Below are positions 22,848-32,692 of a stretch of 64,000 nucleotides of DNA, one piece after another. The position numbers and the translations under genes are program-made. Source of the DNA: Myxococcota bacterium (lineage in GTDB: Bacteria > Myxococcota_A > UBA9160 > JAFDDA01); assembly GCA_965228475.1 (NCBI GenBank), contig OZ245817.1, forward strand, positions 288,001 through 352,000. The letters run 5' to 3'. The notes under the pieces were generated by a model that was not told the origin of the DNA, made no database searches, and saw only the letters and a list, made by a program, of their open reading frames with translations. The stretch's first letter is position 1. Each line of letters begins with the position of its first letter.

Positions 22848-25073
<2,226 letters not shown>

Positions 25074-25239
25074 GGTCCCTCTCGGCGGTTGGGGGAGTCG
25101 AGGGTCTACCAGAATCGGGGTTCCCCCGCATCGTAGCTGGGGCCCGGGGAGGCGCCCGCGGAGCCCGCTGCGGCCGGCCGCCGACTGCGGTACAAGAGCG
25201 GCGTCGGCCGAGATCTCGGCGGGCCTTCCGGAGAGCAGC

Positions 25240-26247
25240 GTGGATCCCCAGACCGAGCAGGGGCTCGGGACGGACGGCACGGGCCGGACCGACCCGGCCG
25301 GTGACATCCGAGCGGAACGCGTCGGCCTGGCCTTCGCGGGCCTGTGCGTCGTGAACGGTGCGGTGTTCCCCGCCGTGGCGAAGCTCACGACCGATGGCGC
25401 GGATGCGCTCTTCGTCGCCACGGTGACGACCGGCTTCGGAGCGCTCGTGGCCTTCGCGTACCTCGCCGTGCGGGGGGGACTCGGCGCGTTCTTCGACCGC
25501 CGAGTGGGCCCGCGCCTCGCGTGGGTCGGGCTGCTCGGCAGCGCGGTCGCCTACGGATTCCTGTTCGAGGGCGCCCGCCGGAGCAGCGCCATCGACACGG
25601 TGCTGTGTCTGCAGGTCGAGCCGCTGTACGCCCTGATCATCGCGCGGATGTTCCTCGGCCACGGTCTGACCCTGCGGCGCATCGCCGCTGCGGGGGTGCT
25701 TGGCACGGGCATCGGGTTGGCCATCGTGGGCGGCGGAGATTCGGATCCGATCGGCATTGCCTTCCTGCTGGCGACGCCGCTCGCCTGGCAGGTTTCGCAC
25801 CTGGTCGCGCTGCGAGGGCTCAGCGGCGTCTCTCCGATGGTGCTGACCGGTGCGCGCTACGTCCACGGCGGCCTGTGGCTCGGCCTGGCGTGGCTCGTCG
25901 CCGGAGCGCCGACGGGGATCGCGCCGGACGACAGCCTCACGGCGCGGCTGCCGCTGCTCGCCTTCCAGGGGATCGCCCTGAGCTTCATCGGAACCGCCTT
26001 CTGGTATCAGGCGATCGCGCGGCTCGACCTCGCGCGGGCGACGGCGATCGTCGTGCCGTCGATTCCGATGGTGTCGGTCCTCGCGACCTTCCTCCTGCTC
26101 GGGGACGTCCCGACGCTCCGCCAGTGGCTGGGCCTCGGCCTGACGGCCCTCGGCGTCCTCGCCTTCGTGACCGCACCGGCGGCCCGGGAGAAGCGCGAAC
26201 GCATCCCCACCGCCACGGCCCCGATCGCCGCGCCGCGCGGAGACTAG
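25240..26247 (+). CDS. EamA/DMT family transporter
   Basis: About 10 hydrophobic helices in two repeats; start uncertain. Confidence 0.8.
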
Positions 26248-27168: not shown

Positions 27169-27864
27169 TCAACGAAGATCGGAGAGGCGCACGCGCTGGC
27201 GCCCCTCCGCGTCGAAGTTCTCCGGAGCGAGCCAGGCCTCGAAGCCGTGCCGGAGGGCCGGCCACTCGGCATCGGTGATCGAGAACCACGCCGTGTCGCG
27301 GTTGCGGCCCTTCATGATGACGTGGTTGCGGAAGGTTCCCTCGTAGCGGAAGCCGAGGCGCTCGGCGGCGGCTCGCGACGGCGCGTTGAGCGCATCGCAC
27401 TTCCACTCGTAGCGGCGGTAGCCGAGGTCGTCGAAGGCGTGGCGCATCATCAGGAACATGGCCTCGGTCGCCGCCGGTGTTCGCTGGAGGGCCGGTGCGT
27501 AGGAGAGATGCCCGACCTCGAGGACGCCCATCTCGGGCTCGATGCGGAGGTAGCTCGCCACGCCGACGGGCCGGGCGTCCGTTCCGGTGCAGACGGCGAA
27601 GAAGAGCGGGTCGTCCTTGCCGAGCGTCTGCTCGACGAAGGCTTCGTACTCCGACGCGCTCGGGAAGGGGCCGTAGGGCAGGTAGGTCCAGTTTCTCCCG
27701 TCGTCCTCGGCGTAGGCGGCGTGGAGCGCTTCGGCGTGGGCCGTCGCGAGGGGCTCGAGCCGGCAGAAGCGCCCGGCGTGCACCTGGTGCCGGGGCCGCG
27801 GCCGTGCGGTGAATCCTTCGAGGCTCCTGCCGATGGGCTGACCCCACCGGTTGGTTCGTTCCAT
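27169..27864 (-). CDS. GNAT N-acetyltransferase (RimJ/RimL type)
   Basis: WTYLPYGP, LGYRRYEWKCDALNAPS, GRNRDTAWFSI. Confidence 0.9.
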   Translation of the reverse strand: MERTNRWGQPIGRSLEGFTARPRPRHQVHAGRFCRLEPLATAHAEALHAAYAEDDGRNWTYLPYGPFPSASEYEAFVEQTLGKDDPLFFAVCTGTDARPVGVASYLRIEPEMGVLEVGHLSYAPALQRTPAATEAMFLMMRHAFDDLGYRRYEWKCDALNAPSRAAAERLGFRYEGTFRNHVIMKGRNRDTAWFSITDAEWPALRHGFEAWLAPENFDAEGRQRVRLSDLR

Positions 27865-27989
27865 CCTTCCGTCTCCCCGATCGCGCCCCGGAGCTTACGG
27901 AAGGGTTCGGGCGACGGTGTGGCCTTTCGGTGGAATCCGGCACCTCGGGCCCGCTACTCGCCGGGCGGGAACCTGTGCCATGGTGGGGC

Positions 27990-30491
27990 ATGGCCGCCGG
28001 CGAACGCACAGCGACCCCCGAGACCTACCCCTTCGCCGAGATCGAACCCCTCTGGGAGGAGCGGTGGGAGGCCGCGGATCTCTTCCGCGCCGGCGCGCAC
28101 CCGGATCGGCCGAGCTGGTACGGCTACGAGTACCCGCCCTACCCGAACGGCAGCCTGCACATCGGGCACGCTCGCAACTACACCCTCGGCGACGTCTGCG
28201 CGCGGTTCCACCGCATGCGCGGCTTCGACGTGCTCTACACCCAGGGCTTCGACTCCTTCGGGCTGCCGAACGAGATCGCCGCGCGCGAGGAAGGATGCCA
28301 CCCGCGCGAGGTCACCGAGCGCTCGATCGCCACGATCTCGGACCAGTTCCGCCGGCTCGGCCTCTCCTACGACCGCAGCCACTTCATCGCCTACCACGAC
28401 CCGCACTACTACGTGCAGACCCAGCGGATCTTCCTGGCCCTCCTGGATGCCGATCTCGCCTACCGCGCGCGGGCGGCGGCCAACTGGTGCCCGACGTGCA
28501 GTACGACCCTCGCCGACGACCAGGCCCTCGAGGGGAACTGCTGGCGCTGCGGCCGGCCCGTCGAGACGCGGGTGCTCGACCAATGGTTCCTGCGGACGAC
28601 GCGCTACGCCCAGGCACTGCTCGACGGCCTCGACACCGTCCGCGACTGGCCCGACCACGCCCTCGCCCGCCAGCGTGCGTGGATCGGCCGCACGCCCGGC
28701 GTCGACGTGCGCCTCGAGATCGCCGAGCGCCCCGGCCGGGAGCTCGTCGCCTTCACGACCCAGCCCGAGCTGATCTACGCGATGAACTTTCTCACGCTCG
28801 CGCTCGAGCACCCCTTCCTGCTCGAGCTCGAGGCGGATGGGGCCCTCGCGCAGGGCGTTCTCGACGAGGTCGAGGACATGCGGCGGCAGCTCCGCTTCCG
28901 GGCCCGGAGCGCCCTGCGCGGTGCGCCGCGTCCGCCGACGCGCACGGTGGCCCTCGGTCTCCACGTCGTGCATCCGCTGACGGGCGAGCGCCTGCCGCTC
29001 CTCGCCGGAAACTACGTCGAGATCTCCTTCGCCACGGGCGCGGTGCTCGGCGCGCCCGCCCACGATCACAAGGACGGCGAGGTCGCGCGCCAGGCCGGGA
29101 TCGGCGAACGGGTGACCTTGCGTCCGCCGGACGGCGAAACGACCGGGGATCTCATCGCCTACGAAGAAGACTGGCGGCTCGTCGACGCCGGGGAGCTCAC
29201 GGGCGCGACCGTCGCCGAATCGAGGAGCCGCGTCGCCGAGGCCCTCGCCCGCGTCGACGGAGGCGGCGCGGCGGTGCGCTTCCGTCTGCGCGACTGGCTG
29301 GTTTCGCGCCAGCGCTTCTGGGGCGTTCCGATTCCCATCGTGCACTGCGTGGATTGCGGTGCGGTGCCCGTGCCCGACGGGGAACTTCCCATCGAGCTGC
29401 CCGACGAAGTCGACCTCGAGGTGGCGGGGAACCCGCTCGAAGCCTGTACGGCCTTCGTCGAGGCGCCCTGCCCTCGCTGCGCGGAGCCCGCCCGGCGCGA
29501 GACCGACACCATGGACACCTTCGTCAACACGACCTGGTTCCCCTGGCGCCACTGCATCCCCGCCGACCGCCCCTTCGATCTGCACTGTGCCGAGGTCGAG
29601 GAGCGCATGCCCGCGGACGTGACGATCGGCGGCGTCGACGTGCTCGAAGGTGCCTTCTTCCACGAACGCTTCCTCGCTCAAGCGATGCACGAGCTCGGCT
29701 GGATCGACTACACCGAGCCCGTCCGGCGCGCGCTCACCCACGAGATGGTGATCCGCAACGGTCGGAAGATGAGCAAATCCCTCGGGAATACCGTCGACCT
29801 CGACGACGTGATCGAGCGCTTCGGCGCCGACAGCCTGCGCACCGCGATCGTGTTCATGGCCCCCTGGCAGCGTCGGGTGGACTGGCAGGAGTCGAAGCTC
29901 GTCGATTGCCACCGCTTCCTCGCCGCGGTCTTCGATCTGGCGGAGCGTTTCGCTTCGTCCCTCGAGACGCACCGCGAGCCGCGCGAACGCACGGACGTGC
30001 TGGGCGCGATCCATCGCGAGACCGCGGCGATCACCGAATCCTTCGAGGGCTACCGCATGCACGTCGCCGTCCACGGGCTCATGCGCCTGCGGCGCACCGT
30101 CGAGCGCGCGGCGGAGGAGGGAGCGCGGCCGGATGCCGTGGAAGGCCTGTCCCGGCTGGTGCGCATGCTCTCGCCGCTCGCCCCGCACCTTGCCGAGGAA
30201 CTCTGGCGGCGGCTCGGCGGCGAGGGCTTCGTGAGCGTCGCCGCGTGGCCGGAGGTCGATGCGGCGCTCGCAGCGGAAGAGCGGCGGACCCTCCTCGTCC
30301 AGGTCGACGGCAAGAAGGTGGGTGCGATCGAAGTCTCACCCGATGCGGACGAGGCAGAGCTCGAAGCGCTCGCGCGGCCGATCGCAGAGCCGACACTCCA
30401 GGGTGTCGAGGTGCTGCGCACGATCTACGCCCAGCGCCGGAAGACCGACTGGATCAACTTCGTGACGAAGGCCCGCCGGGGCGGCGATTAG
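27990..30491 (+). CDS. leuS: Leucyl-tRNA synthetase paralog with divergent active site
   Basis: HIGH, KMSKS, DSFGLPNE, RDWLVSRQRFWGVPIP, RETDTMDTF, CP1 editing domain, C-terminal VQVDGK; several Leu-pocket residues substituted. Confidence 0.9.
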   Translation: MAAGERTATPETYPFAEIEPLWEERWEAADLFRAGAHPDRPSWYGYEYPPYPNGSLHIGHARNYTLGDVCARFHRMRGFDVLYTQGFDSFGLPNEIAAREEGCHPREVTERSIATISDQFRRLGLSYDRSHFIAYHDPHYYVQTQRIFLALLDADLAYRARAAANWCPTCSTTLADDQALEGNCWRCGRPVETRVLDQWFLRTTRYAQALLDGLDTVRDWPDHALARQRAWIGRTPGVDVRLEIAERPGRELVAFTTQPELIYAMNFLTLALEHPFLLELEADGALAQGVLDEVEDMRRQLRFRARSALRGAPRPPTRTVALGLHVVHPLTGERLPLLAGNYVEISFATGAVLGAPAHDHKDGEVARQAGIGERVTLRPPDGETTGDLIAYEEDWRLVDAGELTGATVAESRSRVAEALARVDGGGAAVRFRLRDWLVSRQRFWGVPIPIVHCVDCGAVPVPDGELPIELPDEVDLEVAGNPLEACTAFVEAPCPRCAEPARRETDTMDTFVNTTWFPWRHCIPADRPFDLHCAEVEERMPADVTIGGVDVLEGAFFHERFLAQAMHELGWIDYTEPVRRALTHEMVIRNGRKMSKSLGNTVDLDDVIERFGADSLRTAIVFMAPWQRRVDWQESKLVDCHRFLAAVFDLAERFASSLETHREPRERTDVLGAIHRETAAITESFEGYRMHVAVHGLMRLRRTVERAAEEGARPDAVEGLSRLVRMLSPLAPHLAEELWRRLGGEGFVSVAAWPEVDAALAAEERRTLLVQVDGKKVGAIEVSPDADEAELEALARPIAEPTLQGVEVLRTIYAQRRKTDWINFVTKARRGGD

Positions 30492-30774: not shown

Positions 30775-30819
30775 CCGGAGGGGCTTCCCGGCCTCGGTGC
30801 GGTCCGGTTCGGGCCGGGC

Positions 30820-30862
30820 TTGATTTAGTCGCTTGATCAAGGATATTGTTCGCCCGACTAAA
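30820..30862 (+). promoter_or_regulatory. AT-rich promoter/operator upstream of 30889
   Basis: TTGATT-18-TATTGT overlapped by inverted repeat tttagtcg...cgactaaa and internal palindrome ttgatcaa. Confidence 0.5.
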
Positions 30863-31757: not shown

Positions 31758-31855
31758 GGGACGCGCCCCCTGGCTCGGTTGCATCTCGCCGCGAAGCCTG
31801 GGAAATTGTCCGCGATGGAGTTGTTCGGAAACGGCCGTCCAAGCGAGGTGCCGCG

Positions 31856-32692
31856 ATGAAGGTCGAGCCGACCGGCCAGGCGTGCGGCGCGGTCGTCGAG
31901 GGCGTCGACCTGACGGCGCCGCTCTCGCCCGAGTGCGTGGCGGACCTCCGGGCCGCCTGGCTCGAACATCACGTGCTCGTCTTCCCGGACCAGCCGATGA
32001 GCGACGACGACCTCGAGCGCTTCACCCGCTACTTCGGCCCCTTCGGCGACGACCCGTTCTTCGGCCCGATCCCCGGCCGCGAGCACATCGCCGCGATCCG
32101 CCGGGACGCCGACGAGACCCTGCCCGTCTTCGCCGAGGTCTGGCACACGGACTGGAGCTTCCAGGAGCGCCCGCCCCAGGGTACGTGCCTGTTCGGGATC
32201 ACCATCCCGCCGAAGGGCGGCGACACCCTCTTCGCGAACCAGCACCGCGCGCTCGAGGACATGCCGCGCGCGCTGCGCGAACGGCTCGAAGGGAAGCAGG
32301 CGATCCACAGCGCGAAGCTCGGCTACGGCCCGGATGGCGCGTACGGAGAAAAGGACCGGGCCGCCGGGCGCAGCATGGACATCCGCCCGTCGGAGGAAGC
32401 GCTCGCCGAGCAGCGTCACCCGATCCTGCGGGCGCACCCCGAGACCGGGCGGCTCGGTGTCTTCGGTGCGCTCGGCTACATCGTCGGCATCGACGGCATG
32501 CCGCAGGACGAGGCGTTCCCGCTCCTCCAGGAACTGTTGGCCTGGCAGACGCGCCCCGAGTTCCAGTACCGCCATGCCTGGCAGCCGAACATGCTCCTGC
32601 TCTGGGACAACCGGAGCGTTCTCCACTCCGCCTCGGGCGGGTACGACGGCCACGATCGTCTGCTCCATCGCACGACGATCGGCGCCGGCTGA
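31856..32692 (+). CDS. TauD/TfdA-family 2-oxoglutarate dioxygenase
   Basis: WHTD, GGDTLFAN, WDNRSVLH...RLLHRTT. Confidence 0.92.
   Translation: MKVEPTGQACGAVVEGVDLTAPLSPECVADLRAAWLEHHVLVFPDQPMSDDDLERFTRYFGPFGDDPFFGPIPGREHIAAIRRDADETLPVFAEVWHTDWSFQERPPQGTCLFGITIPPKGGDTLFANQHRALEDMPRALRERLEGKQAIHSAKLGYGPDGAYGEKDRAAGRSMDIRPSEEALAEQRHPILRAHPETGRLGVFGALGYIVGIDGMPQDEAFPLLQELLAWQTRPEFQYRHAWQPNMLLLWDNRSVLHSASGGYDGHDRLLHRTTIGAG

Follow-up and report, generated by a model that had tools for sequence, protein, structure and literature searches.

The window considered here, a stretch of 64,000 nucleotides (positions 288,001 to 352,000 of contig OZ245817.1) from a Myxococcota bacterium, carries a gene for a divergent homologue of leucyl-tRNA synthetase (LeuRS). 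The gene lies in one open frame on the + strand, 27930..30491, which begins with a GTG at 27930. The likely start is the ATG at 27990, and the corresponding form of 833 amino acids is identical to the database protein P0273. Stops and frameshifts are absent, and the G+C content at third codon positions (GC3), 0.90, is as in the surrounding genes. An earlier note on this DNA had claimed that the amino-acid pocket of the encoded enzyme is rewritten while its ATP motifs are kept. The altered motifs are present where that note placed them, and the span it gave, 28120-29780, runs from the first of them to KMSKS. Its E. coli comparators were also right, the K-12 leuS translation reading SMLPYPSG, GWDAFGLPAE, DTFMESSWY and YIGGIEHAIMHLLY. 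In the window protein the first motif is EYPPYPNG (28128-28151), and both HIGH (28158-28169) and KMSKS (29766-29780) are exact. With residues numbered throughout as in E. coli LeuRS, the gene and its motifs are the following.

27990..30491, + strand: gene of the LeuRS-like paralog, 833 amino acids (TIGR00396, identity to P0273, AlphaFold2 model, fold match).
28128..28169, + strand: EYPPYPNGSLHIGH, with M40Y and L41P, Tyr43 kept and HIGH intact (alignment; model at a predicted local distance difference test, pLDDT, of 92-96).
28245..28274, + strand: GFDSFGLPNE, where Asp80, which binds the alpha-amino group, is kept and W79F and A87N are clade signatures (alignment).
28488..28550, + strand: zinc knuckle CxxC...CWRC of the ZN domain, with its four Cys, Trp177 and Arg178 kept, and with Glu169 and Asn168 both replaced by Asp (alignment; roles from PMC13454842).
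28674..29246, + strand: CP1 editing domain, where TTRPDT has become TTQPEL (R249Q, D251E, T252L), with G255A, G331A, R344K and F348V, and with Asp342 and Asp345 kept (PF13603, alignment).
29514..29546, + strand: DTFVNTTWFPW, with S496T, Y499F and Y500P, and with Phe493 and Trp498 kept (alignment).
29622..29663, + strand: TIGGVDVLEGAFFH, with Y527T, the priming loop IEHAIM changed to VDVLEG (E532D, H533V, A534L, I535E, M536G), H537A, L538F, L539F and Y540H (alignment; pLDDT 91-93).
29736..29780, + strand: THEMV (Q566H, G567E), then a six-residue miniloop replacing the leucine-specific (LS) domain, then intact KMSKS (6 of 49 LS-domain columns filled).
30000..30488, + strand: anticodon-binding domain and C-terminal tRNA-binding domain, both complete (PF08264; C-terminal domain with 66/65 columns filled; AlphaFold2 model).

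Pfam recognises the tRNA-synt_1 domain, the LeuRS editing domain (PF13603) and the anticodon-binding domain (PF08264) in the window protein. The NCBIfam model for bacterial LeuRS (TIGR00396, leuS_bact) matches it with 635 bits, above the cutoff of 548.4, over model positions 3-836 of 843, and the models for the valyl-, isoleucyl- and methionyl-tRNA synthetases (ValRS, IleRS, MetRS) score far below leuS_bact. By sequence, the entries of the Protein Data Bank (PDB) that match best are the LeuRS of T. thermophilus (527 bits), AgnB2 (481 bits) and the LeuRS of E. coli (474 bits), and the protein is about 31-35% identical to solved LeuRSs. AgnB2 is the agrocin-84 self-immunity LeuRS of Agrobacterium radiobacter K84 (PDB 5ah5; PMC5059758). 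The AlphaFold2 model, for which an alignment of 46 sequences was used as input, has a mean pLDDT of 91.6 and a predicted template modelling (pTM) score of 0.87, and the rewritten segments are confidently modelled too (pLDDT 91-96). Its best fold matches are all LeuRS structures, the first being AgnB2 (5ah5; TM 0.85/0.90, 31% identity). The full-length match, HIGH, KMSKS, Asp80 and the bacterial fold and domain order (ZN, CP1, anticodon-binding, C-terminal) are thus all as in the leuS_bact family, whereas the family residues M40, Y499, Y527, H533 and H537 read Y, F, T, V and A. Like many canonical LeuRSs of about 820 amino acids, the protein has no LS domain. At the level of sequence, the analysis confirms a bacterial-type LeuRS homologue with ATP-side motifs kept and the amino-acid site rewritten.

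How unusual this state is can be judged from an alignment of 246 rows, 220 of them canonical, which includes E. coli K-12 leuS, the window protein, the host's other LeuRS and database LeuRSs. The canonical residue is retained in 201 of the 220 canonical rows at M40, 220 at Y499, 215 at Y527, 217 at H533, 217 at H537, 218 at S496 and 209 at T252. The residue of the window protein occurs in one canonical row at position 40, in four at 252, in three at 41 (Pro), and in none at 499, 527, 533, 537 or 496. Canonical LeuRS has 101 positions that are at least 95% conserved; the window protein keeps 82 of them and six canonical controls keep 98-101. Its 19 losses cluster in the synthetic pocket and priming loop, at the ZN-domain partner E169 and in the editing site. 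L38Y is a further change beside M40Y and L41P, and every residue of the priming loop (531-536) differs from the canonical one, although an acidic residue persists at 532 (Asp). In the editing site, D342 and D345 are kept and T252L, R249Q, D251E and R344K are changed. In earlier work on the E. coli enzyme, a bulky residue at position 252 is reported to block the editing pocket. The residues retained by the window protein are Y43, H49, H52, D80, the four zinc cysteines, W177, R178, W223, D342, D345, F493, W498, K619, M620 and K622. The core of the adenylation site is intact, as the earlier note had proposed, and the differences elsewhere lie far beyond ordinary LeuRS variation.

Several of these positions have described roles. 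M40, L41, Y499, Y527 and H537, near the leucine pocket, were randomised in E. coli LeuRS for caged cysteine, caged serine and other non-canonical amino acids (PMC11869211), and all five are changed here (M40Y, L41P, Y499F, Y527T, H537A). As described there, positions 527 and 537 are occupied by small residues in the engineered variants, which take bulky amino acids, and T252A was introduced into the editing site (PMC11869211). L41P is present in AnapRS (bioRxiv 10.1101/2024.10.19.619218). According to PMC13454842, the adenylate is hydrogen-bonded by L41, H52, D80, E532 and H533, and Trp177 and Arg178 close the pocket and bind the ATP gamma-phosphate. Residues 531-536 form the 'priming loop', where a flip of the Met536 peptide gates activation, with contacts first to Glu169 and afterwards to Trp223 and Tyr540 (PMC13454842). 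The earlier note had placed M40, S496, Y499, H533 and H537 around the leucine site. These sources bear this out for M40, Y499 and H537 (PMC11869211) and for H533 as an adenylate ligand (PMC13454842), and no text to that effect was found for S496. Once the roles are mapped onto the alignment, the window protein keeps the ATP-side and lid residues, whereas every engineered specificity position, H533 and both ends of the Glu169-Tyr540 contact are changed.

The rewritten motifs are not decay, because they are kept in relatives. P0130, a metagenomic fragment of 364 amino acids (on a contig of 2,824 bp) that is 70% identical, retains TIGGVDVLEGAFFHERF exactly together with DTFVNASWFPW, and the 7 of 833 residues by which the 99% identical P0002 differs leave the motifs untouched. 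The rewritten state is thus under purifying selection.

The host also has a canonical leuS. It lies elsewhere in the single-contig genome of 5.0 Mb, at C1:775291-777906, and scores 1083 bits versus 626-635 for the window gene. The same substitutions in the housekeeping LeuRS had been named beforehand as grounds for abandoning the idea; the housekeeping copy has LDMFPYPSG, GWDAFGLPAE and GGAEHAVLHLLY, all canonical. An approximately unbiased (AU) test on 22 rows (LG+G4) rejects a clade made of the window protein and the host LeuRS (difference in log-likelihood, delta lnL, 196; p 1.9e-56), a grouping that was chosen once earlier trees were known. The window gene is not a recent duplicate of the host leuS. 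Two trees were built with the IleRS and ValRS of the host as outgroup. In the first, a FastTree tree of 117 rows, the window protein falls in a clade of 14 proteins that bear the signatures (support 93), and this clade lies outside about 100 canonical LeuRSs. The second, made with IQ-TREE under a mixture model from 47 rows, gives a clade of 15 (SH-aLRT, the approximate likelihood-ratio support, 96) within a group of 20 (92), sister to 25 canonical rows (88). The basal placement of the paralog clade in these trees is provisional, since both runs gave long-branch warnings. Beyond what the earlier note had claimed, the gene is thus a second copy from an old paralog clade rather than a local rewrite, with the editing site, Glu169 and the whole priming loop 531-536 also changed.

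In the housekeeping LeuRS itself (G000:C1:775291-777906, locus L001), three of the four zinc-knuckle ligands are missing, and Glu and Val stand at the Trp177 and Arg178 positions. Arg178 is kept in 217 of the 220 canonical rows, and the paralog, unlike the housekeeping enzyme of its host, has the full knuckle with Trp and Arg. Misalignment of a degenerate ZN domain could account for this.

The clade was searched for with a back-translated pattern for GFD[SAT]FGLPN[ED], which the canonical GWDAFGLPAE cannot match; two matches were dropped as open reading frames (ORFs) of <90 amino acids. Its signatures are E[YL]PP[YF], GFD[SAT]FGLPN[ED], PEL for PDT and His at position 540. All are found in the window protein, which is monophyletic with P0003-P0006, P0128, P0131 and a group named after the motif PPFANG. 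P0270 has some of the odd motifs, yet groups with canonical LeuRS and was excluded. The pattern found 24 loci, in species-representative genomes of many phyla, including Eremiobacterota/Vulcanimicrobiota, Acidobacteriota, Planctomycetota, Myxococcota, Alpha- and Betaproteobacteria, Chlorobiota and Actinomycetota; all are metagenome-assembled genomes (MAGs) except Bradyrhizobium sp. Leo170. Canonical LeuRS (978-1057 bits) was also found in all ten other clade genomes tested, of the 24, in three of them as two pieces in one frame, and the clade is accessory to it. The 25 full-length clade rows all have H49, H52, D80, W498, K619 and K622, and D80 is present in all 220 canonical rows as well. All members are without the LS domain and keep the four-cysteine knuckle and W177/R178. 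The pocket varies between subclades: position 40 is L in 13, Y in 6 and F in 4 rows, position 533 is Q in 14, H in 6 and I in 3, and position 537 is C in 12, V in 6, I in 3 and A in 1. The C-terminal tRNA-binding domain is kept in the window protein, the P0003 group and P0138; the large PPFANG subgroup has lost it together with most editing residues, and its motifs are ELPPFANG and GG(I/E/A)DQ(A/T)R(S/T)CFFH. No description of the clade was found in the main open-access texts on LeuRS paralogs and self-resistance, second LeuRS copies, synthetase-like cluster enzymes and clusters with AurF; what these describe is AgnB2, archaeal LeuRS-I and NmLeuRS2, and SbzA.

Close relatives of the window protein are rare. 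In 40 related genomes, including one of the same genus and one of the same family, no close copy was found, the matches being 29-41% identical, and of 401 sampled genomes of the phylum only that of the window holds the subclade, the 400 further ones being without it. In a set of 5.8 billion clustered proteins, P0002 is nearest (99%), followed by P0003-P0006 (39-40%); an exhaustive search adds one relative closer than the latter, the 70% fragment P0130. Two metagenome scans found no locus of a close relative. The distribution thus appears patchy and like that of horizontal gene transfer (HGT), and the sequences point to a deep, patchily distributed clade of LeuRS-like paralogs not descended from the host leuS.

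A weak or inactive relic, kept for binding tRNA or for regulation in the way of archaeal LeuRS-I or haloarchaeal NmLeuRS2, or simply a decaying gene, might show such a distribution, with the window species alone carrying it among the 401 phylum genomes sampled. Those two are second copies with very low or no aminoacylation, as described in PMC4005665 and PMC9437257, and in the window protein His533 is lost and E169, M536 and Y540 of the activation cycle are changed. However, NmLeuRS2 has a KMSKS lesion whereas HIGH and KMSKS are exact here, the reading frame is unbroken with GC3 like that of host genes, the new motifs persist at 70% overall identity, the core is invariant in the 25 clade rows and the model is confident. 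A relic is the least likely of the explanations considered, and a very improbable one.

The earlier note had also seen a resemblance of the new motifs to IleRS. For the window protein this holds only partly: Pro41 and Asp532 are as in both the IleRS and the ValRS of the host, and His566 is as in ValRS. The resemblance is strong in distant clade members, where ELPPFANG and the pentapeptide IDQTR occur, the latter identical to host IleRS.

Genomic contexts of the relatives were surveyed by scanning 79 neighbouring proteins from 14 loci. A Methyltransf_24 gene lies directly downstream of the LeuRS-like gene in six loci, and in P0015 it is fused to the synthetase-like protein. The other neighbours include an AurF-like diiron oxygenase (4 loci), a class-V aminotransferase (4), alanine racemase (2), TauD (2), SARP/BTAD regulators (2) and radical-SAM enzymes (2 loci, L020 of the P0003 group and L026 of the P0136 group). 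A protein of about 540 amino acids is homologous across eight loci (33-64% identity), with no Pfam, NCBIfam or credible PDB match. The L020 radical-SAM enzyme resembles a SPASM peptide maturase (PapB model, 135 bits, below the cutoff).

A recurring operon surrounds the LeuRS-like gene at L013, L016, L019, L022, L025, L027, L028, L029, L030, L033 and L034, in MAGs of Acidobacteriota, Eremiobacterota, Planctomycetota, Myxococcota and Alphaproteobacteria. It comprises a LeuRS-like protein (ELPPFANG, GGxDQxRxCFFH, no C-terminal domain, decayed editing), Methyltransf_24, the protein of about 540 amino acids, the AurF-like enzyme and the class-V aminotransferase, with alanine racemase, TauD or a SARP regulator added at some loci, and it looks like an undescribed biosynthetic pathway. 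At L020:6459-11704 the gene of the P0003 group, the nearest well-sampled relatives, overlaps the radical-SAM/SPASM peptide-maturase-like gene. At L026:5995-13495 the P0136-group protein is fused to a C-terminal extension of about 300 amino acids, and its gene adjoins a radical-SAM gene, a methyltransferase-CdhD-ferredoxin fusion and a NosD-like beta-helix protein. Such settings of a synthetase homologue resemble those of ribosomally synthesised and post-translationally modified peptides (RiPPs) or of cofactors. A tRNA-Ile(GAU) near relatives was considered and set aside: ARAGORN called two, Rfam confirmed only that of L020, the L030 call falls inside an ORF, and one of 17 loci is no signal.

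Another reading is that the protein would no longer charge tRNA as an end in itself and that the synthetase scaffold serves as a ligase or transferase, either moving leucine from Leu-tRNA made by the canonical enzyme to a small molecule in the rewritten pocket, in the manner of SbzA, or passing an adenylate to a non-tRNA acceptor. SbzA is an extra IleRS copy of full architecture that binds a small molecule in its aminoacylation site (PMC12945691). The distant members without the C-terminal tRNA-binding domain and editing residues, beside Methyltransf_24, AurF-like, pyridoxal-phosphate (PLP) and radical-SAM enzymes, would suit this mechanism, as would the changes in the priming loop and in His533, which contact A76 and the adenylate (roles as described in PMC13454842). 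It fits those domain-reduced relatives better than the window protein, which keeps its C-terminal domain, Asp342/Asp345 and an exact KMSKS (AMSKA in SbzA), and which has no partner enzymes nearby, the relatives' partners having no homologues found elsewhere in the genome. For the window gene a ligase or transferase role appears quite improbable.

The window gene itself stands alone, between a divergent acetyltransferase gene of the GNAT family and a terminator-like hairpin.

27169..27864, - strand: RimJ/RimL-type GNAT acetyltransferase, divergent neighbour (PDB 3tcv, 242 bits).
30800..30826, + strand: terminator-like hairpin and T-run downstream of the LeuRS-like gene (consensus scan only).

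Because the hairpin and T-run lie downstream, a single-gene transcript is suggested. The GNAT gene was considered as a partner and rejected: a 57% homologue in the same-genus genome G001 lies on a contig without a LeuRS-like gene within 15 kb. The G001 homologue of the membrane protein downstream is on a different contig from that of the GNAT. In the absence of synteny, neither an insertion scenario nor a linkage could be established. NCBIfam NF040702 (ileS_w_GNAT), a model for IleRS fused to a GNAT domain that the window protein matches weakly, is a precedent for synthetase-GNAT pairing. A link through TauD was likewise dropped, as the window TauD (31853-32689) is just 32-33% identical to the cluster TauDs of relatives, a similarity at family level and not shared cluster ancestry. 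PADLOC gave no match for the paralog or for four of its five neighbours, and no Rfam family reached the gathering score in the window. The host genome has six tRNA-Leu genes, including two for tRNA-Leu(CAA) at G000:C1:1967053-1967140 and 4920484-4920573, and three ARAGORN calls with four-base anticodons (2026194, 2953628, 4378041), none of them near the paralog. Elsewhere in the window, the ORF of a monomeric isocitrate dehydrogenase (22848-25421, - strand; 1292 bits to Pfam IDH) extends about 120 codons upstream of its domain match and into the predicted start of the opposite-strand EamA gene; both genes probably have their true starts further in.

A stand-alone gene beside an exporter and an acetyltransferase would also suit a spare leucine-specific LeuRS, insensitive to a natural inhibitor (a leucyl-adenylate mimic or similar) or suited to a special condition, which backs up the housekeeping enzyme like AgnB2 or the mupirocin-resistant IleRS2. 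The gene is a second copy next to a canonical one, and has kept all the domains and motifs for charging tRNA; among solved structures that of AgnB2 is the closest, and it too has a miniloop for the LS domain; the pocket remains hydrophobic; and a patchy, HGT-like distribution is described as typical of resistance paralogs (PMC5388404). However, AgnB2 resists with a nearly unchanged catalytic site, whereas Y499, Y527, H533 and H537, each kept in 215-220 of the 220 canonical rows, and the editing gate are replaced here. An inhibitor gene cluster was not seen in the flanking 20 kb, and subclades with different pockets in different biosynthetic operons fit substrate diversification better. Since the catalytic site of AgnB2, the one characterised resistant LeuRS, is described as 'very similar' to that of E. 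coli LeuRS (PMC5059758), a substrate other than leucine is favoured over resistance. A spare leucine enzyme is the main rival, if a rather unlikely one.

An active synthetase with a non-leucine substrate is the most likely reading, to which we give slightly less than an even chance. It is favoured because the adenylation and tRNA apparatus is kept while the pocket, the loop and the editing site are re-made, because the changes are conserved, and because a canonical LeuRS is alongside in every genome tested; the differing pockets of the subclades and the biosynthesis-like operons of the relatives speak for it too. The window gene would then encode a complete class Ia aminoacyl-tRNA synthetase, probably active, from a deep accessory branch of bacterial LeuRS. 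ATP binding, aminoacyl-adenylate formation and tRNA holding would all be retained, through HIGH, KMSKS, Asp80, Tyr43, Trp177/Arg178, the acidic residue 532 and the anticodon-binding and C-terminal domains. The pocket for the side chain, the activation-gating priming loop and the part of the editing site that takes the amino acid are all changed. The enzyme may thus activate an amino acid other than leucine, probably hydrophobic and of different size or shape, and load it on a tRNA, most likely a tRNA-Leu-type acceptor, without proofreading and for a purpose outside housekeeping translation.

Several observations weigh against this reading. The replaced pocket residues are mostly still hydrophobic (Y, P, F, T, V, A), so that leucine binding would be possible; the loss of His533, E169D and the changed priming loop could mean low or altered catalysis; and long-branch attraction, of which both trees and the AU run gave warnings, could contribute to the basal position of the clade. 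The gene lies outside any biosynthetic cluster, next to GNAT, alpha/beta-hydrolase, EamA exporter and TauD genes without conserved linkage, and a scan limited to the flanking 20 kb recognised no biosynthetic genes there. The host genome is without homologues of the methyltransferase, AurF-like, 540-residue and radical-SAM partners of the relatives, and no dedicated tRNA was found in the window.

More tentatively, and as a possibility rather than an expectation, the clade may be a natural, ancient extra class Ia family on the LeuRS scaffold. Its subclade pockets would suit different non-leucine, possibly non-proteinogenic, amino acids, as counterparts of lab-evolved E. coli LeuRS, and its members would supply unusual aminoacyl-tRNAs or adenylates for specialised metabolism. 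On this view, the residues that resemble IleRS and ValRS (Pro41, Asp532-Gln533, His566) would have been retained from an ancestral class Ia state older than the canonical pocket of Met40, Glu532-His533 and His537.

LeuRS is counted among the synthetases that are most stable in evolution (PMC5388404), and the table of a 2022 review has '-' under LeuRS-like non-canonical functions (PMC9437257). If the preferred reading is right, a LeuRS-derived bacterial clade with its chemistry kept and its amino-acid handling changed would be a new branch in the catalogue of synthetase paralogs, and would offer genetic-code engineers natural scaffolds already retargeted at M40, L41, Y499, Y527, H537 and T252. 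The operons of the relatives point to undescribed pathways, possibly dependent on tRNA or aminoacyl-adenylate. If the enzyme is instead leucine-specific and inhibitor-insensitive, it would represent a resistance route quite unlike that of AgnB2.

Among known systems, AgnB2 is the best structural match to the window protein and its third-best sequence match in the PDB, and it too is a second bacterial-type LeuRS beside a housekeeping copy, with a miniloop for the LS domain. As described in PMC5059758, it differs in having an E. coli-like leucine and adenylate site and in charging leucine normally, while the window pocket is rewritten; its resistance residues are T42, A102 and Q573 of KQSKS, where the window protein has KMSKS. 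The window gene, moreover, does not adjoin a toxin gene cluster, and no LeuRS-inhibitor biosynthesis genes were seen in the flanking 20 kb. The engineered E. coli LeuRSs ONBCRS, DMNBSRS and AnapRS (PMC11869211; bioRxiv 10.1101/2024.10.19.619218) are altered at the same positions, M40, L41, Y499, Y527, H537 and T252, with small residues at 527 and 537 and, in AnapRS, the same L41P. They are laboratory products with 3-10 mutations, whereas the window protein is natural, has its priming loop, His533 and Glu169 changed as well, and carries Leu, not Ala, at 252. SbzA, of SB-203208 biosynthesis, is likewise an extra class Ia copy with full domains and a modified aminoacylation site, and works outside translation (PMC12945691). 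As described there, it derives from IleRS, has HYGH and a degenerate AMSKA and lies inside a gene cluster; the window protein is LeuRS-derived, both its HIGH and its KMSKS are exact, and its gene stands alone. Finally, archaeal LeuRS-I (Sulfolobaceae) and NmLeuRS2 (Halobacteria) are also second LeuRS copies, and the haloarchaeal bacterial-type LeuRSs likewise branch at the base of bacterial LeuRS (PMC9437257, PMC4005665, PMC3436685). By their description they differ from the window protein, LeuRS-I in its disrupted CP1 or divergent C-terminal domain, and NmLeuRS2 in its KMSKS lesion, its insertion of 38 amino acids and its archaeal C-terminal domain.

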